Shown here: positions 8,347 through 56,702 of the stretch, piece by piece
Layout of the letters: each line of letters starts with the position of its first letter
Numbering within the stretch: position 1 is the first letter of the stretch
Source of the DNA: Patescibacteria group bacterium
GTDB lineage: Bacteria > Patescibacteriota > Patescibacteriia > Magasanikbacterales > GWA2-37-8
Length of the DNA: 64,000 nucleotides
Assembly (NCBI GenBank): GCA_041649475.1
Contig: JBAZNA010000001.1
Coordinates: 878,594-942,593 of the forward strand
Reading direction: 5' to 3'
The notes under the pieces: generated by a model
The model's input: only the letters and a program-made list of their open reading frames with translations
Database searches by the model: none
Told to the model about the DNA's origin: nothing
Translations under genes and position numbers: made by a program

Positions 8347-8889
8347 TTACTTAACAAAAGGAATTCCTAAATGAGTTAATAGCGATTTGCCTTCTTCTTT
8401 GTTTTTAGCCGTCGTATTGATAATTATCTGCAAACCGTGCATTTTTTCAATATCTTCCGATTTAATTTCCGGAAAAGACAAGTTTTCTTTAAAACCAATC
8501 GTATAATTTCCATTGTGATCAAAACTTTTTGCTGACACGCCTCTAAAGTCGCGGACGCGCGGCAAGGTAATGGAAACTAACTTTTCTAAAAACTGGTACA
8601 TTCTCGGTCCGCGCAAAGTAACCATCACGCCGATATCCATGCCTTCTCTGATTTTAAAGTTGGAAATAGATTTTTTGGCTTTGGTTCTGACCGGTTTCTG
8701 GCCGGAAATCTTGGTCAGCGTGCTTTCCACATTTTCTATAAAATGCGGCTCTTTAATAAAGCGGCCCACCCCGGCATTAATAATTATTTTGGCCACCCTT
8801 GGCGTTTGCATAATATTTTTGTAGCCAAATTCCGCCTTCATCGCCGGCACAACTTCCTTTTTGTATTTTTCGTATAAATTCACTTTCAT
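8347..8889 (-). CDS. rplE: Ribosomal protein L5 (start set at MKVNLYEKY to avoid overlap with L24)
   Basis: L5 N-terminal pattern; the track ORF 8347-8961 overlaps rplX. Confidence 0.85.
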
Positions 8890-15166: not shown

Positions 15167-16354
<1,188 letters not shown>

Positions 16355-16540
16355 AATAATTAAACTCTTACGCGGCACTATACCGAGTGGTCGGTACAGA
16401 TTTGTATCCAGCCGACGAAATTTATACTAATTTTAAACAAATTGTAAACTACATTATAACAGAAATAAAAAATTTGGCAAGAGCCAGCTTGTGGATACTA
16501 TATTTTTGCCTAATTTTAGCTATTATTTAGCTACTTTTAG

Positions 16541-16999
16541 CTATTCTATGGGCTCTAAATAAAATTTCTCCTCTTCTTCATCTTCTGAAATATTTTTTAA
16601 ATCTTCTTCCTCAATTTTGGGTATTGCCTGGACTTCTGTTGACGCGGACGGTTCTTCCGCGTCTTTTTCCGCTAATTTTATGAACTTCGCATCATCAGAT
16701 TCAGACGCTGATAAGGCCTCATTTTCTTTTTCATTGTATGATCTCCAGATGGATATGTCTCTATTGATTCGTTCCAACAATTGTTCTTCATTCAGGTCTT
16801 CCAGCGAACTTTGATTGCTTAAAATTTTCTCATAGGCCTCAATATCCATCATTACCATTGCATTGTCCGTTTCATTGTCCAAAATAATCATTTTATCACC
16901 GGTGCGTTTTACCAAATTTAAGACCTTGTTCAGTTGGCTATTTTTCATAGGTTTTGTTAAGATTAACATTAGCCCTTCTTGAAGCTGATTGTATTTCAT
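16541..16999 (-). CDS. Hypothetical acidic protein with a Phd/YefM-antitoxin-like N-terminal domain (no toxin partner seen)
   Basis: QLNKVLNLVKRTGDKMIILDNETDNAMVMMDIEAYEKIL fits the YefM/Phd N-terminal pattern; the C-terminus is poly-acidic. Confidence 0.35.
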   Translation of the reverse strand: MKYNQLQEGLMLILTKPMKNSQLNKVLNLVKRTGDKMIILDNETDNAMVMMDIEAYEKILSNQSSLEDLNEEQLLERINRDISIWRSYNEKENEALSASESDDAKFIKLAEKDAEEPSASTEVQAIPKIEEEDLKNISEDEEEEKFYLEPIE

Positions 17000-17018: not shown

Positions 17019-18806
17019 ATGACCAAATTTTATCTAAAGACATTTTTGGCGGCCATCTTTGCTGCTATCACGCTATTTTCGGTACAAATACCGGCGTACG
17101 CTGCTCTCGGCAGTTCTTGCCCAACAAACCTAAAACCGGGCGATATGGTCAAAGTCGCCGGAAAACCGGCAATATATCTCATTAACAAAGATTCAAAACT
17201 TTTATATTTCCCCGATGGCGATGTTTTTAAAAGCTGGCATGCCAAATATGGCGGCTATATCTCCATAGACCAGACCTGCCTTGATTCAATTCCCGTGCCA
17301 AACACATACCCAGCCGGTGTTAATTTTAAACCCGGTTCATATATTGTCAGGCAGGAATCTTCCAGCCAATTATATACCATCCCCACCGAAGACACCTTGG
17401 CAAAAATTTCACCGGCGACCGCAGCCGCTTTGTACGGAAGCGGCTACAAGGTCATGGTTATAAAAAACATCTTCTGGCCCAACTATGTCTACAGGGCTCC
17501 GGATATCGCCGAGGTTTCACCGCCTCCGGCGCCATCGCCGGTACCCGCAACCGGCAATATCTATTATGTTTCAACCTCGGGCAAAAATTCTAACTCCGGT
17601 TCGGCAACCAGTCCCTGGGCCAGCCCGGCCTATGGAGCCGATAAACTCAAACCCGGCGATACGCTGATTATAAAATCCGGTACCTATTATTTGAATGACT
17701 ATGGCAATGATATGCTTGTCCCGCCATCCGGAGCTGCTAATAACTACGTAACCATCAAAGGAGAAAGTGCGGCCAACCGACCAATTCTCAAAGCCGGCAA
17801 CAATATGTTTGCGGCCATCAGTATCTCAAACAAAAGCTATGTAAAAATTGCGGACTTGGAAATTACCAGCAATAACGGGCAGGATTTCCGGGACGGGATA
17901 AACGGCGCTGAAGGACCGGCCAATCATATTATTCTGGAAAATTTATACATCCACCACCTTGATGAATATGGTATAAATATTGGCGACACCAATGATCTTA
18001 AAATTACTAACTGCGTAATTTCCTACACCGGTTATGGCGCTATCGGCGGGCCGGCCGGCACAAATGGCGGCTGGAAAAATGTTGTGATATCCGGAACAAC
18101 CATGTCTTATAGCGGCCACTATTATCAGGGCGGACCCGGGCCAAGCCCATATGACAGACCCGATGGATTTGGAATAGAAACATCGGCCGGTCCGATTGAA
18201 ATCGCTAATTCAATATCCGAACACAACAAAGGCGACGGCATTGACTCAAAAGCAGAAAATACCAATGTGCATGACACCGTAATCAGAAACAATTCTTCTG
18301 ATGGCTTGAAGTTGTGGGGCACAGGTAGTAAAGCGACTAATGTCTTAATTTACGGCCGCGGCGACGGTAATTCCAACATCACGCCCTGGGCGTCAATTGT
18401 CCTGCAATCTGATAAAGCGAATGCGGTGTTCACTCTTGACCATGTCACAGTTGATGATTATCTGGGTGGTAATTATCTGATGCACGTGCAATATGACAAT
18501 CAGAACACCCCGACCACTCTTACCATAAAAAATTCTATCTTTTCTTCACGCGGGCCAAACGCCTCGCCGATATTTATAGCTCCGGGCACCAACTTCACCG
18601 TCTCAAACAGCGACTTTTATTTCCCTGGCAGTGACAACGTGCTGGAGCATGGCGATACTGCTTATACTTCTTCGCAAATTAACACCTTCGGATCCGGTAA
18701 TATTTATGGAGATCCAAAATTCGTTTCACCGGCTTGGGGCTCTAATGGAAATTACCGTCTGCAAAGCGGCAGTCCGGCAACCGGAATGGGCACAAATACT
18801 TTTTAA
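17019..18806 (+). CDS. Secreted right-handed parallel beta-helix (pectate-lyase-fold) protein
   Basis: Signal peptide MTKFYLKTFLAAIFAAITLFSVQIPAYA; repeated ...N..I.N..I motifs (ENLYIHHLDEYGINIGDTNDLKITNCVISYTG); inserted between fusA and tuf on the opposite strand. Confidence 0.6.
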   Translation: MTKFYLKTFLAAIFAAITLFSVQIPAYAALGSSCPTNLKPGDMVKVAGKPAIYLINKDSKLLYFPDGDVFKSWHAKYGGYISIDQTCLDSIPVPNTYPAGVNFKPGSYIVRQESSSQLYTIPTEDTLAKISPATAAALYGSGYKVMVIKNIFWPNYVYRAPDIAEVSPPPAPSPVPATGNIYYVSTSGKNSNSGSATSPWASPAYGADKLKPGDTLIIKSGTYYLNDYGNDMLVPPSGAANNYVTIKGESAANRPILKAGNNMFAAISISNKSYVKIADLEITSNNGQDFRDGINGAEGPANHIILENLYIHHLDEYGINIGDTNDLKITNCVISYTGYGAIGGPAGTNGGWKNVVISGTTMSYSGHYYQGGPGPSPYDRPDGFGIETSAGPIEIANSISEHNKGDGIDSKAENTNVHDTVIRNNSSDGLKLWGTGSKATNVLIYGRGDGNSNITPWASIVLQSDKANAVFTLDHVTVDDYLGGNYLMHVQYDNQNTPTTLTIKNSIFSSRGPNASPIFIAPGTNFTVSNSDFYFPGSDNVLEHGDTAYTSSQINTFGSGNIYGDPKFVSPAWGSNGNYRLQSGSPATGMGTNTF

Positions 18807-18814
18807 ATAAAAAA

Positions 18815-19165
18815 AGCCCGGGAGAGAAGAGAGTCGAGGCGAGGAGGCAAATCCATAGTCCGCAAGCGAGGCAGGGGGCCACCTCACATCACAGACGTTT
18901 GCACCTCTTCACTCTTCTTCCCGGGCCGAAGACAGGACAGCCTAGCCGGTAAATTCGCTCTTGGCTCAAGTTACGAACCACGCAAATCCGCACAATAGTG
19001 CACACCCGGTTCCAGCTGAAACCTCCCGCGACTTCAAATCCTACAGGAGTTTCTGCCCGCGAACGGAACAGATCAGGGAACCTTGGGTGAACCGACAAGG
19101 GCATCACGGAGGCTGAATCCACCTTACTACTAAAAACAACCCCTGTCTAGGGGGTTGTTTTTTTG
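18815..19165 (+). ncRNA. Candidate structured ncRNA (~350 nt, GC-rich); identity unresolved
   Basis: ~58% GC island with no plausible ORF; ends in a canonical terminator; 18818-18834 pairs with 18911-18926; shares the CCGCGAACGGAACA core with the R2 repeat. Confidence 0.4.
19128..19165 (+). terminator. Intrinsic terminator AAAAACAACCCCUGUCUAGGGGGUUGUUUUUUU
   Basis: 7 bp GC-rich stem (CAACCCC/GGGGUUG), 7 nt loop, then a U7 run. Confidence 0.6.
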
Positions 19166-19197
19166 AGTTTAAAACGCCTATGAGCGCACAACAAGAA

Positions 19198-21273
19198 CTA
19201 TTTCTGTCTGCCGGCAATAATTTCGGCAGCCACATTGGTCGGCACCTCGGCATAGTGGCCAAATTCCATGGTGGAACTGGCACGGCCCTGTGAAATACTG
19301 CGCAAGGTGGTAGCATAACCAAACATACTCGCAAGCGGTACTATTGCTTTTACGACTTTCATCTGGCCTCTATCAAACATTTCCTGAATCTGTCCGCGTT
19401 TGGAATTCAAATCGCCGATCACATCGCCCATATATTGTTCCGGAGTAACGGCCTCCACTTTCATTATCGGTTCCAAAATCACCGGATGAGCTCTTTTGCA
19501 AGCGGCTTGAAAAGCCATTGAGCCGGCCATCTTGAAAGCCGCTTCAGATGAGTCAACCTCATGGTATGAACCATCATAACAAATAACTTTCACATCAACC
19601 ACCGGGTAACCGGCCTGTATGCCGCGAGTAACCGCATCTTCAACACCTTTTCTGATAGCAGGGATAAATTCTTTAGGAATCACGCCGCCTTTTACCTCAT
19701 CAACAAACTCAACGCCCTTGCCTTGCTCCTGGGGCTCAACCCGAAGCCAGCAATGGCCATACTGACCGCGGCCGCCTGATTGTTTAATGTATTTGCCTTC
19801 GGCCTCGGCAGTCGCTTTAACGGTCTCTTTATAGGCAACCTGCGGCTTGCCGACATTGGCCTCAACCTTAAACTCCCGGCGCATGCGATCAACAATAATA
19901 TCCAAATGCAATTCACCCATGCCTTCAATAATGGTTTGCAAGGTCTCTTCATCGGTATGAACCCTAAAGGTCGGGTCTTCTTCGGTAAGCTTTTGCAGGG
20001 CCATGCCGATTTTTTCCTGATCAGCTTTAGTTTTGGGTTCAATAGCCACCGAGATAACCGGTTCCGGGAAGATAATTTTTTCAAGAACAATCTGATGATT
20101 TTCATCACACAAGGTATCTCCGGTGAACGTGCTCTTTAAACCAATGGCCGCCGCAATTTCTCCGGCATAAACATCAGTCACATCTTCGCGGTGATTGGCG
20201 TGCATACGCACAATTCTGCCCAATCTTTCTTTGGTACCGTTTGAAGAATTATACAAATAACTGCCGGCGCTGACATGTCCGGAATAAACACGGAAAAAGA
20301 TTAATTTTCCCACAAACGGATCAGTGGCAATCTTAAACGCCAAGGCGGAAAACGGTTCGCTGTCATCCGCTTTTCTTAACTCTTCCGCTTCAGTATCCGG
20401 ATTGATACCTTTTACCGGAGGCAAATCGGTCGGCGCCGGTAAATACCAAACTACCGCATCCAACATTTGCTGGACGCCAATATTTCCCAAAGCCGAACCG
20501 CACAGAACAACATAAATCTGGCCTTTAAGAGTCAACGTGCGCAAAGCGCTTCGTATTTCTTCGTTGGTCAAAGCATTACCGTTTAAATATTTACTCATGT
20601 ATTCATCGTTGGCTTCAGCGGCTTTTTCAACCAATTCGGCGCGGTATTTTTTTACCGATTCAACCATATCTTCCGGAATGGGAATTTCAATAACATTTTC
20701 TCCATGTTGACCTTCAAATTTGTATGCTTTTTCCTCTATCAAATCAACTATGCCGGAAAAGGTGCTATCAGCGCCGATTGGCAGTTGAGCCGGATAAGCA
20801 TTTTTGGATAATCTTTCCCGAATTGAAGATAAGCTCATGTAAAAATCGGCGCCAAGCTTATCCATTTTATTTACAAAAGCAACGCGCGCCACATTATATT
20901 TATCGGCCTGATGCCAGACCGTTTCTGATTGAGGTTCAACACCCTGTGAACCGTCAAACACGGCCACAGCTCCGTCAAGCACGCGCAAAGATCGCTCTAC
21001 TTCCACGGTAAAGTCCACATGGCCCGGAGTATCAATTATGTTGATGCGCTTTCCTTTCCAAAAACAAGTGGTGGCGGCTGAAGTGATGGTGATACCACGC
21101 TCTTTTTCCTGTTCCATCCAGTCCATTTCGGCGGCGCCTTCATGCACCTCGCCGATTTTATGTTTCTTACCGGTGTAAAACAAAACACGTTCAGTGGTTG
21201 TGGTTTTACCGGCATCAATATGGGCCATGATACCTATATTTCTGGTATTTTCTAATGTGTATTCACGAGGCAT
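19198..21273 (-). CDS. fusA: Elongation factor G
   Basis: 691 aa; [13 protein letters not shown]1 motif; S12-S7-EF-G order. Confidence 0.95.
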
Positions 21274-21284
21274 ATAAATATAAA

Positions 21285-21761
21285 TTACTTGGCGAAACGG
21301 GCAAAGTGAGCAAAGGCCTTGTTGGCTTCAGCCATTCGGTGCACTTCATCTCTCTTCTTCATGGCATCGCCAACGCCTTGGGCGCTGTCAAGCAACACGG
21401 TTGCCAATTTATCAGCCATTGGCTGGCCTTTTTTGGCCCGGGCCGCGCCGATTATCCATCTAAATGACAAGGCATTTTGTCGGCTGACCGATACCGGCAT
21501 CGGCACCTGGTAGTTGGCGCCGCCCACTCGGCGTGAGCGCACCTCAACCTGGGGCTGAACATTTTTTATGGCCTCTTCAAAAGTTTTCATCGGATCTTTT
21601 TCGGCCGCGGCAATTTTATCAAACGCGGAATAAACAATATCTTGAGCGGTTGATTTTTTGCCCCTCTCCATAATGTGATTTATGAATTTGGCCAAAACAA
21701 CACTGCCGTATTTTGGATCCGGATTGATTATTCTTTTAATTTTTAGTCGTCCACCGCGCAT
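21285..21761 (-). CDS. rpsG: Ribosomal protein S7
   Basis: 158 aa; conserved position. Confidence 0.9.
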
Positions 21762-21795: not shown

Positions 21796-22224
21796 TTATT
21801 TCTTGGCCGCTTTCGGTTTCTTGGCTCCATATAAACTTCTGCCGCGTCTCCTGGCTTCAACTCCTTGGGTATCATAAACACCGCGCACAATGTGGTAGCG
21901 CACGCCCGGCAAATCTTTCACGCGGCCGCCGCGAAGCAAAACGATTGAGTGTTCCTGCAAATTGTGGCCCTCGCCCGGAATATAGGCAATGACTTCCATA
22001 CCGTTTGACAGGCGGACTTTAGCGACCTTGCGCAAAGCCGAGTTTGGTTTCTTTGGTGTGGTTGTATAAACTTTTGTGCAAACACCTCTTTTAAAAGAAG
22101 TGCCTTTGGCAAAAACAGTTTTCTTGCGATGAAGAGTATCTAAGGTAAACTGCAAAGCCGGAACTTTGCTCTTTTTTACCTTGCTGTGTCTGCCTTTTCT
22201 AATTAACTGGTTGATTGTAGGCAT
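21796..22224 (-). CDS. rpsL: Ribosomal protein S12
   Basis: [12 protein letters not shown]...[10 protein letters not shown] signature. Confidence 0.95.
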
Positions 22225-28012: not shown

Positions 28013-28094
28013 ATATTTTTATTAAAAATTAATTAAAATTTGATTATACCTATTCTATCTCATCCACATATGCACAGTCAACATCAAAATTTTA

Positions 28095-28123
28095 TTGACA
28101 CGCAACTCGCTATTGCCTACAAT
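28095..28123 (+). promoter_or_regulatory. Cassette promoter TTGACA-17-TACAAT
   Basis: 28095-28100 is TTGACA; 28118-28123 is TACAAT; spacer exactly 17 bp; ~55 nt upstream of the GC-rich prs-like ATG. Confidence 0.6.
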
Positions 28124-28180
28124 GCAGACAAAGTTCGCACCTTTAACAACGCATTTCGCGAAAGCGGAAAGGATATACGG

Positions 28181-29392
28181 ATGTCAGACAACCTTGAGAA
28201 GGTTCTGGGTTCCACTATTCCCTCCTTCATCAGCCGACTGATGCAAGATGCGGCTACATACGTCGCAGAAAAAGTTGGTACTACGACGGTACAGATGCCA
28301 ACGTTTTTCGTGGAGCTGGCCGACACTCTCAAACGGCTGGCCGAACAAGCCAGACATAACCGCAACGGCGGGCTGACCCTGGTGCCCATGCCGGGATTCG
28401 TGGAACTGGCCAGCACCACCAAGAAGCTCATCGAAGAGCACGAGAAAGACACGCCGGTGGACATCGTCGTGCCCGAATTCAACACCCGCAGCAACAAGGA
28501 GCCGGTCGTGCGCCTGAGCAAGGACCACATCGGCGGCCACGACTGCGTCATCCTCACCAGCGGACCTGGCACCTACGAGATGCTCACCCAACTCCAGTTG
28601 GCTCTGGGTTATCTGGTCGGCCGCCGGGCCGCCAGAATCTCAATCGTAACCGGCTATCTGCCCCTAGGCAGATCAGACAAGGACGAGGGGGCGCTTGAAT
28701 TCGCTCTTGCTTCCCACATCGTTCACATGATCGTCTCCGCCTCCTACGGCCATCTGGATCGTATCATCGCTCCGGACCTGCACGCACCCCAGGTGGTCAT
28801 GGCAGCGCAGGTCGGTCTCATCACCGAGGTAACGCTCGCCCGTCGCGTGCTCACAAGGGCGGTCTCGGATGCGCTTGAGAAGTTCAAACGCATCTGCCTG
28901 GTTCTCCCTGACGATGGCGCCTACAAGAAGTTCATGCGCGTCATTGCCGAAGTCGAGAAGAATCTCAACATCAAGCTGCCGGTGGTCTGCGGCCAAAAAC
29001 GCCGCAACAGCGACACCCATTCTGAACTCCTCGGCTTGGCCGGTGACACGAGCGCCTTGAAGGACGCGCTGGCTATTGGCTTTGACGACGAGATCGCCAC
29101 CGGCATCACCACTGTGCACACCGCCGAGGCAGTGCTCCGGCAGTATGACGCAGCCGACTACTGGGCGGCGGCGATCCACGGCGTGCTCTGTGGCGATGCT
29201 CCCAAGATCCTCTCTTCTGAACTCTGCCCGATCACGCGGGTATTTATTACCGACTCCATCCCGCCCAACGGCCGTATTGAGCTGGATCCGCTGCGCGCCA
29301 GCGACCGCCTGAAGGTGGTTTCCTGGGACGAAGATCTGGCTCACCTCATCTACTATCACCACTGGGACAAGTCCATCCGCGAAATGCGCTAG
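28181..29392 (+). CDS. Ribose-phosphate pyrophosphokinase (Prs/PRPP synthetase) homologue with a ~150 aa N-terminal extension, GC-rich cassette
   Basis: IVTGYLPLGRSDKDE aligns with the Prs PYFGYARQDR region; APDLHAPQV with DLHA; FDDEIATGIT with the PRPP-binding DD.DTG; ~58% GC against ~38% flanks. Confidence 0.65.
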   Translation: MSDNLEKVLGSTIPSFISRLMQDAATYVAEKVGTTTVQMPTFFVELADTLKRLAEQARHNRNGGLTLVPMPGFVELASTTKKLIEEHEKDTPVDIVVPEFNTRSNKEPVVRLSKDHIGGHDCVILTSGPGTYEMLTQLQLALGYLVGRRAARISIVTGYLPLGRSDKDEGALEFALASHIVHMIVSASYGHLDRIIAPDLHAPQVVMAAQVGLITEVTLARRVLTRAVSDALEKFKRICLVLPDDGAYKKFMRVIAEVEKNLNIKLPVVCGQKRRNSDTHSELLGLAGDTSALKDALAIGFDDEIATGITTVHTAEAVLRQYDAADYWAAAIHGVLCGDAPKILSSELCPITRVFITDSIPPNGRIELDPLRASDRLKVVSWDEDLAHLIYYHHWDKSIREMR

Positions 29393-33941: not shown

Positions 33942-34013
33942 TCTGGGGTAGTTTAATGGTAAAACGCCACGCTGTTAACGTGGTTAGTGTAGGTTCGATT
34001 CCTACCCCCAGAG
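33942..34013 (+). tRNA. tRNA-Asn (anticodon GTT)
   Basis: Folded by hand: acceptor UCUGGGG/CCCCAGA, D-stem GUUU/AAAC, anticodon stem CCACG/CGUGG with loop CUGUUAA, T-arm GUAGG-UUCGAUU-CCUAC, discriminator G; followed by a GGCCC...GGGUC-U6 terminator. Confidence 0.85.
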
Positions 34014-34215
34014 CTATGAAAAAAGGCCCAAAGTTATTCGGGTCTTTTTTCATAATTTTGCGGGAGGAAGCGAACAAAGGGGTGGCGGGGAAAGTATTTC
34101 CCCGCATTGCTGGGGGTGACCGAAGCCGCCAACCACTGTTAGAGTAGAGGCGGCCGAGGGCAAGAGGGGCGGAAGCCCCTATTGAGGAGCGCGCGAGCGA
34201 AGCGAGCGGCGCGAC

Positions 34216-37194: not shown

Positions 37195-37319
37195 AATTTA
37201 ATAAATTTCTAAATTTTTCCCCGACCCATCCCCATCAAAGAAGACCACCAGACAATGCCCAAAAATCCCTCAATGGTCTCACTTTACATAGCTTCTGAAC
37301 CCGTGTCGGGAGCTATAAA

Positions 37320-37348
37320 AAATCACCCTCAAATTAAGGGTGATTTTA
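37320..37348 (+). terminator. Insulating hairpin AAAUCACCCU-caaauua-AGGGUGAUUU upstream of the cassette promoter
   Basis: 10 bp perfect stem with flanking T-run. Confidence 0.5.
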
Positions 37349-37355
37349 ATTTTGA

Positions 37356-37384
37356 TTGACACAAAAATATCATTATTGTATTCT
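37356..37384 (+). promoter_or_regulatory. Cassette promoter TTGACA-17-TATTCT, then AGGAGG
   Basis: 37356-37361 is TTGACA; 37379-37384 is TATTCT; AGGAGG at 37392-37397; ATG at 37406. Confidence 0.6.
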
Positions 37385-37405
37385 CCCTAAAAGGAGGCGC
37401 TAATC

Positions 37406-37615
37406 ATGCCGATCTTTGGCAGTGACGAAGACAGATACACAACTTGGAAATGCCCTTCGTGCCACAACTACTTCGGCAGAAGCGGCAAGTGTTCCGTCTG
37501 CGGCGACACGCTAGTGCAGAGTGCCATCTCCGACGCGGCGGTCAACCGCATCATCTACGCTAGGGACATCGAACGGCCCCGGCAACAAGACCAGAAAAAG
37601 CGCGAAGGAGGATAA
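37406..37615 (+). CDS. Small zinc-ribbon protein (GC-rich cassette)
   Basis: 69 aa; CPSC...17...CSVC; its stop overlaps the RBS of the next ORF. Confidence 0.5.
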   Translation: MPIFGSDEDRYTTWKCPSCHNYFGRSGKCSVCGDTLVQSAISDAAVNRIIYARDIERPRQQDQKKREGG

Positions 37616-37621
37616 GGCGCC

Positions 37622-37909
37622 ATGGCAAAAAAAGTCATAAATGGCCAGGTCATAGACGACCTTGGGATAGATCTCGACAGCTTACCCCTCCCAGCGCAAC
37701 TGCTGGAGGAGCGGCGGCGCAAGGGTCATCCCATCGAGATCCCAAGCTTGGGCGTCATCATCATGCCCGATGGAACCGTGGTGGACAAGGGCCTGCCCCC
37801 GGACGACTACGCTAGGGCCAGCCCGTCCGAAAAGACCGCCACGCTCAAGCGGTACGAGCCAGAGCAGGGTTTCTTCGCCCGCCTGTGGCGGCGGATCTTT
37901 CACAAATGA
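37622..37909 (+). CDS. Hypothetical 95 aa protein (GC-rich cassette)
   Basis: GAAGGAGG RBS then ATG; ~60% GC; followed immediately by repeat R1. Confidence 0.5.
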   Translation: MAKKVINGQVIDDLGIDLDSLPLPAQLLEERRRKGHPIEIPSLGVIIMPDGTVVDKGLPPDDYARASPSEKTATLKRYEPEQGFFARLWRRIFHK

Positions 37910-37915
37910 GTTCGT

Positions 37916-38000
37916 TCATTCCCCAAGGAGGGTGCTCCGCGAACAGCAACAACAGTTCGCACCCCTCAAAAGCAACTCACCAGATGGGTTGTTTTTGTTT
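37916..38000 (+). repeat. R1: ~87 bp 3' module (GCGAAC...GTTCGC hairpin plus T-rich tail), 84/87 identical to R2
   Basis: tcattccccaaggagggtgctccgcgaacagcaacaacagttcgcacccctcaaaagcaactcaccagatgggttgtttttgttt. Confidence 0.6.
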
Positions 38001-38066
38001 AGGTTGGGGTGTCTTTATTTTCCTATATAGCGTATGCTACAGATATTAAGACCTAACACTGAATTT

Positions 38067-38519
38067 ATGATAAAACCACTGCTTATTCTGCCTCTGTTAA
38101 TTTTAGCCGGAGCCGGATGCGCATACGCGCCAGCCACAAATAATCAAACTAACTTAAACTACAGCAACCAAAACCTGACTTCGGCTCCGGCTGGAATTTT
38201 TGATAGAACCGACGCTACCAGTCTTGATCTCTCACACAATAATCTGACTGGAGCCATCCCAGCGGAAATAAGATTTTTACAAAATCTTAAAGTTCTGAAC
38301 TTGAGTAATAATAAAATGACTGGCCTGCCCGCCGAAATCGGCCAATTAAAAAATCTGGAAATTCTTGACGTGTCCAACAACCAACTGACCGGCCTGCCAT
38401 ATGAATTGGGAAATCTAAAAAACTTAAAAACCCTGAATTTGTCTGGCAACGCGTACTCCGAACAAGACCTCCAAATCATCCGCGAGAAAATCCCAAATGC
38501 GAATATTATTACTAAATAA
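38067..38519 (+). CDS. Secreted leucine-rich-repeat protein (native AT-rich composition)
   Basis: Signal peptide MIKPLLILPLLILAGAGCAYA; four LxxLxxLxLSxNxLTGLP repeats. Confidence 0.7.
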   Translation: MIKPLLILPLLILAGAGCAYAPATNNQTNLNYSNQNLTSAPAGIFDRTDATSLDLSHNNLTGAIPAEIRFLQNLKVLNLSNNKMTGLPAEIGQLKNLEILDVSNNQLTGLPYELGNLKNLKTLNLSGNAYSEQDLQIIREKIPNANIITK

Positions 38520-38626
38520 GTGCTTTCAACTGGATCCTTCTTGAACTTAAATAAGAGCTTCATCGAACATTGACGGCTCATCTTTTTTCATATTTAATAT
38601 ACATACCCAAATGAAGGAGGACAGGC

Positions 38627-39442
38627 ATGCGCATTATCTTGTTGAGTTTCGTGCTCGGGATCTGTGTATCAAGTGTGCCCCACCATGGGATCGCCCAAAG
38701 AGATTCGTCAAGACCATCCCTGGCCACACTGGACAAGCAGATCTTCACCCAGAACACGGTGATTGAGGCCGATCGGATCGAGATCCAGAGTGGAGCCAGG
38801 ATCCGCGTCCGCAACGGAGCGGCCTTGAAGCTCAAGGCAGACACCATCGTGATCTTTGGCCCCGCCTTCATCGACGGCCGCGGCGAACCCGGCCACCAAG
38901 GCGCTCCCGGGCAATCGAAGAACGACACCTGGCGGAGCAGCGGTGGCGGCGGGTGGTATAGCTGCGATATCGCCCATCGCGACTGGGTGGCTTCCGGAAG
39001 TGAGGTTGACCGCGGCGGGGATGGTGGACCGGGCGGTCCCGGAGGACCTGGGGCGATCATCATCCTGGAGTACAGGGACCTACAGGGTCCCGCCAACCTG
39101 CAAACCGAATTCCGAGGCGGACCGGGCGGTCCCGGAGGACCTGGTGGAACCGGCAGAATCCTCTGCTGCGGTTGCCACAACAACGAGTGCAAGCGGGGTC
39201 CTTCGGGTAGGTCAGGGCCAAACGGCCAGCCAGGTCCCAATGGACGGGAAGTTCGTCGAAGTCTGACGAGAACCCAATCCATTGATTCCACCAGCATCAC
39301 GCCGCCGCCGGAGCGCATGGAGTCGTGCTACCCCAACCCCTGTCCGTCCGGAATCTGCTGCGAGAACCAAGGCAGAATCTGGTGCTGTTCCGAAGGACAG
39401 TACTGCACCTATTCGCCTGATGGATGCAAGTACCGCAAGTAG
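38627..39442 (+). CDS. Secreted Gly/Pro-rich (GPGGPGGPG), Cys-rich protein (GC-rich cassette)
   Basis: AAGGAGG-N6-ATG; signal peptide MRIILLSFVLGICVSS; two GGPGGPGGPG tracts; 15 Cys in the last 120 aa (CCGCHNNEC, CCENQGRIWCC). Confidence 0.55.
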   Translation: MRIILLSFVLGICVSSVPHHGIAQRDSSRPSLATLDKQIFTQNTVIEADRIEIQSGARIRVRNGAALKLKADTIVIFGPAFIDGRGEPGHQGAPGQSKNDTWRSSGGGGWYSCDIAHRDWVASGSEVDRGGDGGPGGPGGPGAIIILEYRDLQGPANLQTEFRGGPGGPGGPGGTGRILCCGCHNNECKRGPSGRSGPNGQPGPNGREVRRSLTRTQSIDSTSITPPPERMESCYPNPCPSGICCENQGRIWCCSEGQYCTYSPDGCKYRK

Positions 39443-39560
39443 GCCGTCGCTCTTTTCTCCTCCGCCAGTCTGGCCCTTCCAGCTGGCTTCTTTTTTTATC
39501 AAAAATAATTGTATTCCAAATAAAGTCATGTTAAACTGACTGAAAGAGGAGGATGGGACA

Positions 39561-39938
39561 ATGAAAAAATACAAGCACTTCTCGGGTGCAGTGCTGATGA
39601 GAGACGAACTCAAAAAGAAGTTCGGCACGCCGAAGTGGCTCGCCGGCATCGTTGTGATGCACACCGTCCGGTATGGCTACCTCGTGGAAGTACGCGTCTT
39701 CGGCAAGGCCAAGTTCCCCAAGCTACCCAGGTTGCCTCTCTACCTCCGGGATGCCACCAGGGTCCGCTTCCGGCGGGTGAAGAAAACACCGGAAGCGCGA
39801 CTGAAGAGGGCAATCGCCCGGTTTGAAGATCCGGCTTCGCACGTCGCCGACAATGTTGCTCTCTCAGCAACCCTACACGAAGCCGCCGAAGCCCACTCCA
39901 AAATCCTGGGACCACATGGCCGCCTTCGACATTGCTAA
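39561..39938 (+). CDS. Hypothetical basic 125 aa protein (GC-rich cassette)
   Basis: AGAGGAGG RBS; ~58% GC; followed immediately by repeat R2. Confidence 0.5.
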   Translation: MKKYKHFSGAVLMRDELKKKFGTPKWLAGIVVMHTVRYGYLVEVRVFGKAKFPKLPRLPLYLRDATRVRFRRVKKTPEARLKRAIARFEDPASHVADNVALSATLHEAAEAHSKILGPHGRLRHC

Positions 39939-39940
39939 AC

Positions 39941-40027
39941 TCATTCCCCAAGGAGGGTGCTCCGCGAACGGCAACAAAAGTTCGCACCCCTCAAAAGCAA
40001 CTCACCCGATGGGTTGTTTTTGTTTAC
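39941..40027 (+). repeat. R2: second copy of the 87 bp 3' module
   Basis: Differs from R1 at three positions; starts 3 nt after the stop, as R1 does (7 nt after its stop). Confidence 0.6.
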
Positions 40028-55664: not shown

Positions 55665-56415
55665 AATGGGACCCGAGGATACTCTGGACCTGGGGGTGGT
55701 CGTAAATCCCCGTTTCCCGTGGGGTTCTGCTTCCCCGTGGCTCACCACTACGCAGGTGACTCGACCCATCTGCCTTTCGGCCACCAGGGCGGGTGTAGAT
55801 CTTGGGAGGGCGGCACGGGCGCTTGCATGTCATCAGTCGGGCTGTTAAGCCCTATGTGTGGAACAGCAGCTTCACCTGACGCTCCTTTCTTTTCCTCTGC
55901 GGGTGTTCGACCCCCGGATAGAGGTCGAATACTCGATAAAGGTGGGAAACGAGAGAGTGAACCCCCGCGTTTCCCGTACTGCACTGCTTCCATGCTTTGG
56001 CGCGACCCTGCGAGGTTACGGCCCTTGAGTTGAGAGAATAGTACTTCCCCGAAGGCTTTCCTATCCCGTACAACCTGGGCCTGCATAGTACCCCGAAGTG
56101 ACTTTGCCCTGCTTGGGCGTTGGCTAGGGGTGTGGTCGCCACTTAATTCCACACCTTGCGTTTAACTGCGCACGACACCTCCATCCTTGGGTGGTGTCAC
56201 CCTTGCTTGGCGCGGGAGCTTTGTCGTAATGCTCCGCAGCGCGGGTTTACGGTTTACGTGCGCCTAATGGACGCACGCACGGCGGGATCTACTTCTGTGA
56301 CCCCGAGTTAGAGAAACGGGCCATAACGCATGTGGTCCACTCCTCCACCGAGCCGCCGGCACATAGTCCGAGGGCCTTTCACAGGCCGCTAAATATTAAC
56401 GGACTACGAAAGATA
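55665..56415 (-). ncRNA. Candidate large structured ncRNA (~750 nt, ~60% GC) with its own promoter and terminator
   Basis: No credible ORF in either orientation; multiple GNRA/UUCG-capped helices (GGCCGAAAGGC, GCCUUCGGGG, CACUUCGGGG, GGGAAACG...CGUUUCCC). Confidence 0.45.
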
Positions 56416-56422
56416 ATGGATT

Positions 56423-56451
56423 AGTATAGCAGAAATTGTTCGGTTTGTCAA
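56423..56451 (-). promoter_or_regulatory. Promoter TTGACA-17-TATACT for the GC-rich ncRNA candidate
   Basis: Reverse complement of 56446-56451 is TTGACA; reverse complement of 56423-56428 is TATACT; located in a short AT-rich spacer. Confidence 0.55.
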
Positions 56452-56702
56452 CCTCTCGACCACTTTGGTCAAGAGGCAATTACTTACCACTTCGCTTTAA
56501 TGTCCCCACATAAGTGAGAGTCCAAAGATCAAAATGGAAAGTAATTGGGAGCCGAAGTGTTTGAGCACTGCGGCTGTGCCTCCAGCAATGTTCGCTCGCG
56601 CGAACGATTCGCATGGCCAGCCGCGTGGCACACTAGGGGTGCGGCTGTTAGGGCTGGTGGTCTGCCTCATACCTGATGCGCACGGAACGATCTCCGTTGA
56701 CA

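Follow-up and report, generated by a model that had tools for sequence, protein, structure and literature searches.

The gap downstream of fusA in this genome is best explained as holding the gene of a structured non-coding RNA (ncRNA) of ~300 nt, predicted to run from roughly 19114 to 18809 on the minus strand, and we put the probability of this reading at about 0.55. That the element is a genuine functional RNA encoded on this strand appears on the whole probable, and it probably represents a lineage-restricted, independently transcribed structured ncRNA, of which two full sequences are available. An earlier note, made from the letters alone, had proposed a structured RNA in a GC-rich island here without naming its family; this proposal is upheld by a strand-specific fold, a syntenic homologue, compensatory changes and the lack of a conserved open reading frame (ORF).

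Within the window, by which we mean the whole 64,000-nt stretch of DNA analysed, the str operon lies on the minus strand in the order rpsL, rpsG, fusA, the studied gap, a plus-strand beta-helix gene, p152, tuf and rpsJ, with the following coordinates:

21796-22224, minus strand: rpsL
21285-21761, minus strand: rpsG
19198-21273, minus strand: fusA, encoding EF-G
18807-19197: the studied gap between fusA and the beta-helix gene
17019-18806, plus strand: secreted right-handed beta-helix gene (Pfam Beta_helix), stop codon at 18804-18806
16541-16999, minus strand: p152, a 152-aa gene
15167-16378, in the minus-strand str operon: tuf

A protein search with the window EF-G returned a 100% identical protein from a Patescibacteria metagenome-assembled genome, on a 963-kb contig of which the window covers about 7%, and Magasanikbacteria and Patescibacteria metagenome-assembled genomes as the next best matches; the genome is that of a member of the Patescibacteria (candidate phyla radiation, CPR) akin to Magasanikbacteria. 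Separate exact-protein look-ups with EF-G, S12 and S7 of the window gave no match. The gap between fusA and the plus-strand beta-helix gene is real and ORF-poor, as had been described. Its GC content was overestimated at ~58%: we measured 55.0% for 18815-19165 against a window mean of 43.7%, so that the GC-rich island stands while the surrounding "AT-rich genome" is only moderately AT-rich.

The other two occupants of the fusA-tuf interval are p152 and the beta-helix gene. The earlier note had regarded p152 as an orphan Phd/YefM-like ORF. Its Phd/YefM match lies below the Pfam cut-off (24.7 vs 29.8 bits), and about two dozen loci of related Patescibacteria carry a homologue in the fusA-tuf spacer; p152 is therefore a normal occupant of this spacer and not an orphan of one genome, apparently a conserved str-region gene of this clade as opposed to an orphan antitoxin. 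The beta-helix gene (Pel9A-like), by contrast, interrupts the fusA-p152-tuf layout, on the opposite strand, in only three closely related lineages. Its horizontal acquisition is suggested by homologues in unrelated bacterial phyla and in archaea, whose proteins are 50-59% identical to its C-terminal 420 residues. For the start of this gene the ORF list gives TTG at 16989, and comparison with a related contig (L081, see below) supports ATG at 17019.

Comparison of the spacer with related genomes revealed a homologous element at the same position in the nearest relative. Two contigs, L081 (from JGI 3300014839) and L082 (from ENA ERZ27248448), encode an EF-G 90% identical to that of the window, are identical to each other in the element region and share the order fusA, a 490-nt gap, an opposite-strand beta-helix gene (68% identical), a p152-like gene and tuf. 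The same gene order with a 428-nt gap occurs on the P0006 contig (JGI 3300075153, 21,029 nt, gap at 2411-2837; EF-G 87% identical), which is known from its gene layout only; across these syntenic layouts and the window the gap measures 390-490 nt. A further contig, L116, is 97% identical to P0006 and ends 136 nt past fusA, and L117 ends within fusA. The comparative set accordingly consists of two independent full-length sequences and 37 nt of a third.

Within and next to the gap we delineated these features:

19132-19162, both strands: bidirectional intrinsic terminator of fusA (terminator scan)
19121-19149, minus strand: putative weak promoter, with -35 TAGACA (19149-19144), a 17-nt spacer and -10 TAAGGT (19126-19121)
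18934-19108, minus strand: domain 1, the conserved core, a full-length match of the L081-derived covariance model R1
19099-19091 (5' strand, CUUGUCGGU) and 18950-18942 (3' strand, ACCGGCUAG), minus strand: helix H1, 9 bp
19089-19003, minus strand: stem A with two hairpins
19057-19070, minus strand: UGUUCCGUUCGCGG, the minus-strand reading of the motif CCGCGAACGGAACA singled out by the earlier note
19002-18989, minus strand: hairpin B
18989-18951, minus strand: hairpin C
18940-18952, minus strand: invariant 13-nt block UUACCGGCUAGGC, which includes the H1 3' strand
18816-18926, minus strand: domain 2, a 111-nt irregular hairpin (folding)
18809-18815, minus strand: U7 tract directly after domain 2 (sequence)

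Strand-specific thermodynamic stability, as expected of a structured ncRNA, was found in both species. The whole element folds with -155.7 kcal/mol on the minus strand (z = -6.96) and -124.4 kcal/mol on the plus strand (z = -3.28). For the 5' domain alone, without either terminator, the minus strand reached z = -2.99 (1 of 200 shuffles as good) and the plus strand z = -0.43 (68 of 200 shuffles as good), while the homologous domain of L081 gave z = -4.85 on the fusA strand vs -1.77 on the other. The predicted structures moreover contain G-U pairs (7 of 31 pairs in the window, 11 of 55 in L081) that would be C-A mismatches on the opposite strand. Because of these z-scores and pair counts, the folded RNA is predicted to lie on the minus strand, the same as fusA, and not on the plus strand implied by the boundaries originally drawn.

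The source of that strand assignment is the hairpin at 19132-19162. Its 13-bp stem (AAAAACAACCCC...GGGGUUGUUUUU) begins 35 nt past the fusA stop codon and is symmetric, with A-runs and T-runs flanking both sides; because of this symmetry and position, it is the bidirectional terminator of fusA, and equivalent hairpins directly follow fusA in L081 and L116. The hairpin and T-run reported by the earlier note thus exist, but they form the upstream boundary of the RNA gene and not its end; having been taken for the 3' end of the element, they led to the wrong strand.

The opposite end of the element is formed by domain 2. The long-range complementarity between 18818-18834 and 18911-18926 that had been noticed is real and constitutes the basal stem of this 111-nt hairpin, with a purine-rich and a pyrimidine-rich strand (GCCCGGGAAGAAGAG... 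/ ...CUCUUCUCUCCCGGGC). Together with the U7 tract, domain 2 forms a minus-strand intrinsic terminator ending 2 nt before the beta-helix stop codon, and folding identifies it as the predicted stem of the RNA's own terminator; the plus strand lacks a T-run after the hairpin. Intrinsic terminators are therefore found on both sides of the element, at 19132-19162 by the scan on both strands and at the domain 2 stem with U7 by folding on the minus strand, the latter being absent from the scan because the hairpin exceeds its stem and loop limits. In L081, domain 2 measures 147 nt and has nearly the same basal stem, with the shared blocks AAACG and UGCGGACU. Its interior is not alignable to that of the window (111 vs 147 nt), and a covariance model of L081 domain 2 (R2) aligned only the basal stem when run against the window, at a non-significant score. 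In L081 the hairpin gives way to CUUUCUU, to a 21-nt sequence present twice in tandem directly after domain 2 (CCGGGCACTTTCTTAAACAAA, L081:6349-6390), which repeats the basal stem's 3' end plus the tract after it, and finally to a separate bidirectional terminator.

Homology of the two 5' domains was supported by model R1, a covariance model built from the L081 5' domain alone (162 positions, 55 pairs). It recovered 18934-19108 of the window on the minus strand over its full length with 18.5 bits and E of about 0.002, the top match in the 128 kb searched; the E-values rest on a shortened calibration and are rough, and the best spurious match elsewhere, at 14.8 bits, is not far below. An nhmmer search of the window with the L081 sequence found nothing. 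Alignment of the minus strand with L081 by MAFFT revealed five colinear identical blocks (GUAAGGU, GUCGGUUC, UUACCGGCUAGGC, UGCGGACU and CUUCUCU), outside of which the two elements have diverged. The longest identical stretches are UUACCGGCUAGGC and GUCGGUUC (19096-19089). Between the window and L081, identity at the four-fold degenerate sites of fusA amounts to only 48%, so that neutral sequence should be near saturation at this distance.

Both species share one architecture. The L081 5' domain folds as a four-way junction closed by H1 (CUAGUCGGU / ACCGGCUAG), in which stem A leads to a terminal three-way junction bearing two hairpins, hairpin B is 5 bp long, and hairpin C comprises 8 + 7 bp, an internal bulge on the 3' side and a GUAA loop. 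The minimum free energy fold of window domain 1, begun at the predicted 5' end, is the same: a leader of about 15-25 nt precedes H1, which encloses stem A, hairpin B and hairpin C. Stabilising tetraloops occur in both, UUCG in the window and GAAA and GUAA in L081. Within stem A of the window, UGUUCCGUUCGCGG makes up the upper part of a hairpin capped by C(UUCG)G; L081 has a similar string, GUUCGGUUUGCGG, as the 5' strand of its stem A.

In the R1-based alignment, 98.8% of pair cells were paired, as opposed to 31-45% with slid partners, and 8 pairs had changed on both sides, where slid-partner controls gave 1-4. RNAalifold predicted 34 pairs, 9 of them compensatory. Compensated pairs, as expected of a structured ncRNA, therefore number 8 or 9; these counts are small, coming from two sequences in an alignment (A5) fitted to the model structure. 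The double changes fall in hairpin C, hairpin B and the base of stem A (with RNAalifold mostly in hairpin C and the stem A base), the interior of stem A not being alignable between the window and L081. H1 never varies: its core (GUCGGU / ACCGGC) is invariant between the two species, and H1 alone was held constant in sequence while every other helix drifted.

A candidate promoter lies immediately upstream of the fold. The putative -35 hexamer TAGACA is located within the loop of the fusA terminator, and transcription is predicted to start near 19114/19113 on the minus strand. The pair scores 8 of 12 against the sigma-70 consensus, which is under the threshold of the promoter scan and explains its absence from the scan. 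The same layout recurs in L081 (TTGACT-18-TAAGGT) and L116 (TTGATT-16-TAGGGT), so that three species have in common a -35-like hexamer, a spacer of 16-18 nt and TA(A/G)GGT downstream of the fusA terminator. From this conserved layout we infer that the RNA probably has its own promoter and is transcribed independently, though it may instead be a processed product of read-through from fusA.

The gap lacks coding potential, in agreement with the earlier note. Its only long ORF (77 aa, 18889-19122, minus strand) has no Pfam match and is not conserved in L081, where every frame of the homologous region contains 5-9 stops; no peptide similarity to L081 was found in any frame, and gene callers left the gap empty on three contigs (L081, L082 and the P0006 contig). 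No second copy of the element exists within the window. The motif CCGCGAACGGAACA, said to be shared with "R2", has a single exact occurrence in the window. Allowing 2 mismatches adds only one further match, and this match count is also reached by 8 of 100 shuffles. "R2" is probably the following repeat:

37916-38001 and 39941-40026, plus strand: 86-nt direct repeat, copies 97% identical

Each copy combines a GC-rich hairpin (GGGTGC...GCACCC) with a second, terminator-like one that has a T-run, and the two copies follow different small genes. The repeat shares with the element only the 10-mer CCGCGAACGG; by our estimate, chance would produce about 40 exact matches of 10 nt between the window and an element of 350 nt. 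We therefore attribute the shared motif to chance, and reject a repeat or mobile element as the identity of the gap sequence.

The GC-rich stretch 37195-39940 (52-62% GC vs 43.7% for the window) encodes small ORFs (a 69-aa Cys-rich one and one of 95 aa), a leucine-rich-repeat protein and a glycine/proline-rich protein with GGPGGPGGPG repeats, and looks like a compositionally foreign island. Further GC-rich ORFs of the window are located at 151-898, 28040-29392 and 55748-56702.

The known distribution of the element is narrow. Three relatives with an EF-G 86-87% identical carry other genes right after fusA with gaps of 42-244 nt, and the element is absent there; L118 has a different context with a real 112-aa gene downstream. 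A sequence search of 80 species-representative fusA loci (EF-G ≤82% identical) returned no similarity to the element, fusA being followed in these loci by p152-tuf, other genes, tRNAs or 16S rRNA. Searching 864 kb from 89 related or beta-helix-containing loci with R1 gave no credible further copy. A metagenome scan with the beta-helix protein yielded 29 paralogous loci in other contexts, none of which (0/29) had the RNA, and pattern scans of viral contigs gave 0 matches and then 2 chance matches that the model rejected. The RNA family is thus either very narrow or located elsewhere in the genomes that lack the element after fusA.

Two further observations concern the region after fusA in this group. 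In the closest species-representative genome (L078, EF-G 82%), a 770-nt gap follows fusA and holds, at L078:8400-8770 (plus strand), a near-consensus promoter (TTGACA-17-TATACT, about 8402-8432) and then a strongly folding region of ~320 nt (z = -6.4) with a terminator at its end. Rfam gave no match for this region, and neither MAFFT nor nhmmer nor R1 could align it to the window element; the site may hold a different ncRNA here, unrelated to that of the window. In some relatives, stable RNA genes take the place of tuf within ~1.2 kb after fusA, namely two tRNAs (L003:9297-9461) and 16S rRNA (L006:5336-6418), which leads us to conclude that the str operon is often broken after fusA in this group.

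Taken together, the element would operate as follows. Transcription of rpsL-rpsG-fusA would stop at the bidirectional terminator 19162-19132, and the weak promoter overlapping it (TAGACA-17-TAAGGT) would start the RNA. The transcript would fold into two domains, the compact four-way junction closed by H1 and the long irregular hairpin, whose base together with U7 would terminate it just short of the convergent beta-helix gene. H1 and its flanks may be the part that is recognised or carries the function; a structural role would fall to helices A, B and C and to domain 2, since they are free to vary while pairing is kept.

As for its role, the RNA could be a stable, trans-acting, protein-bound scaffold and not a cis-regulator; we put this forward tentatively, as a possibility rather than an expectation. 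Three points favour it: no same-strand gene follows, a terminator or insulator would not require so elaborate a fold, and one helix is constant in sequence, like a recognition or active site. The next minus-strand gene beyond the element is p152, 1.8 kb away and past an opposite-strand gene, and a riboswitch or cis-regulatory leader was rejected for lack of a regulated same-strand ORF directly downstream. A prediction of RNA-mRNA duplexes against all start regions was discarded: the duplexes had unrealistically long loops, and the neighbouring genes gave no signal.

Instead of acting in trans, the element could sense in cis and control antisense transcription, with domain 1 as an aptamer for a ligand or protein and domain 2 with U7 as the expression platform; failed termination would send antisense transcription into the convergent beta-helix gene and lower its expression, in the manner of riboswitch-controlled antisense RNAs. 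The arrangement of a structured domain followed by a terminator hairpin fits this idea, as do the window terminator abutting the beta-helix stop codon and the presence of the element in exactly the three lineages with the beta-helix gene at this site and its absence from three without it. In L081, however, the second strong bidirectional terminator between domain 2 and the beta-helix gene argues against useful read-through. Reading the sequence by eye, we saw no way for domain 1 to pair alternatively with the terminator stem, no known aptamer matches, and the 29 other loci with beta-helix homologues do without the element. We therefore consider a sensor improbable.

No better placed is the idea that the element is a structured 3' extension of the fusA transcript, serving as spacer or insulator between convergent units and having no trans function. 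It would be made by read-through of the first terminator and perhaps be processed, its hairpins protecting the mRNA end and blocking colliding polymerases. The element does sit between two convergent genes with terminators on both ends, and in the window the fusA terminator and the fold lie so close together that a promoter hardly fits between them, the proposed -10 being weak. Yet an insulator needs hairpins only, and not a four-way junction, an invariant helix and compensation in three helices; three species have kept the -35/-10-like pair past a strong terminator; and relatives manage with 40-250 nt after fusA.

Slightly weaker still is the view of the gap as a non-functional remnant, a decayed gene or mobile-element fragment that arrived with the beta-helix gene and whose GC content and foldability are incidental. 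The beta-helix gene, with its 50-59% identical homologues in unrelated phyla and archaea, was inserted into the compact fusA-p152-tuf layout, the window contains other GC-rich stretches, and the distribution is narrow, all of which would suit such an origin. Near-saturated divergence, however, should have erased the colinear blocks, the compensatory pairs and the strand-specific fold that both species retain. The lack of peptide similarity between species in any frame, of a repeat of the element in the window and of such an element beside other beta-helix homologues likewise speaks against decay.

Scans for known RNA families placed the element in none of them. Of the 4227 families of Rfam 15, which include raiA, OLE, ROOL, GOLLD and HEARO, only tRNA-Asn reached the gathering score in the whole window. 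At E ≤ 10 with permissive filters, 18700-19300 gave terminator look-alikes and other chance-level matches (best E = 1.7), and L081 5950-6450 likewise gave chance-level matches only. ARAGORN reported tRNA-Asn (33942-34014) alone in the window and no tmRNA, standard or permuted. The earlier note had suggested RNase P RNA or tmRNA, to be checked along with 6S and SRP RNA by these scans, and none of these families was found. The case that it named against its own reading, no Rfam match and no conservation in relatives, holds in its first half only: Rfam gives nothing, but the element is conserved in the nearest relative, L081.

RNase P RNA (type A or B, archaeal or type T) was rejected on structure as well as on the absence of any match at the gathering score or at E ≤ 10 in the window or L081. 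The P4 helix formed by CR-I (GAGGAAAGUCCGGGC) and CR-V (ACAGAAnCCGGCUUA) is missing, as the earlier note had found, save for a partial likeness in GUCGGU / ACCGGCUAG, and the flanking strings GGAAAG and ACAGAA are absent from the window and L081. There is no P1-P3, the ends being unpaired and the 3' part a self-contained hairpin (111 nt in the window, 147 nt in L081), and the 123-136 nt between the H1 strands are too few for a P5-P18 core. tmRNA was rejected in the absence of an acceptor, T-arm and tag reading frame, which the earlier note had also reported missing, and with ARAGORN and Rfam negative. 6S and SRP RNA had no model match in the window or L081, and the conserved domain is a four-way junction.

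P4 of Escherichia coli RNase P RNA reads AAGUCCGGG / CCCGGCUU, and we take H1, with UAGUCGGU / ACCGGCUA, to resemble it, as a lead only. The RNA could be the core of a new ribonucleoprotein or ribozyme confined to the Magasanikbacteria-like lineage, in the boldest form a drastically minimised and rearranged RNase P-like RNA with H1 as P4; we regard this as very improbable. A divergent RNase P RNA or tmRNA proper is the least probable of all: its roughly right size of ~300 nt, the P4-like H1 and the GNRA loop of L081 hairpin C, reminiscent of P18, are outweighed by the negative scans and missing parts set out above.

The genomes of Patescibacteria (the candidate phyla radiation) are tiny and hardly contain spare DNA, so that a 300-nt region kept as a complex, compensating fold likely does something. 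The element is a real feature and, on comparative support from two species, a credible new RNA family. Our literature search found no description of such an RNA and no papers on Patescibacteria non-coding RNAs. If confirmed, it would add a family absent from Rfam 15 in a lineage that still cannot be grown alone, and its four-way junction, closed by an invariant helix, would give metatranscriptomics and structure probing a defined target; for now, the narrow known distribution and the two sequences limit its value.

Among known systems, RNase P RNA (RF00010/RF00011) is comparable in length and likewise has a conserved long-range helix closing a multi-helix core. H1 is P4-like in sequence (AGUC(C)GG / CCGGCU), and the GNRA-capped hairpin C of L081 adjoins the H1 3' strand as P18 does; unlike RNase P RNA, the element has no covariance match, no P1-P3, no CR-I to CR-V and no specificity domain, and its 3' end is a long hairpin terminator instead of a strand pairing with the 5' end. 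With tmRNA (RF00023 and permuted forms) it shares a similar size and a stand-alone gene with an intrinsic terminator, but not the acceptor, T-arm or tag ORF. 6S RNA (RF00013) is also the product of a stand-alone stable RNA gene and a long irregular hairpin, like domain 2, whereas the core of the element is a four-way junction and not a rod with a central bubble, and does not match the 6S model. Riboswitch-controlled antisense RNAs, of which the B12 riboswitch-AspocR arrangement in Listeria is an example, resemble it in having a structured domain followed by a terminator and pointing antisense into a neighbouring gene; they differ in that the element has no known aptamer, a second terminator in L081 and no alternative pairing that we could see.

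The last comparison is with orphan structured ncRNAs, which come from long GC-rich intergenic regions of AT-rich bacterial genomes (GC-IGR/DIMPL, PMC8723152; Weinberg et al. 2017, PMC5737381). The element differs from these RNAs in matching 0 of the 4227 Rfam 15 families and in being sequenced from two species, with probably a third. Like them, it occupies a GC-rich island with no ORF in a context that gives no function, and it combines a multi-helix fold and compensatory changes with a terminator of its own.
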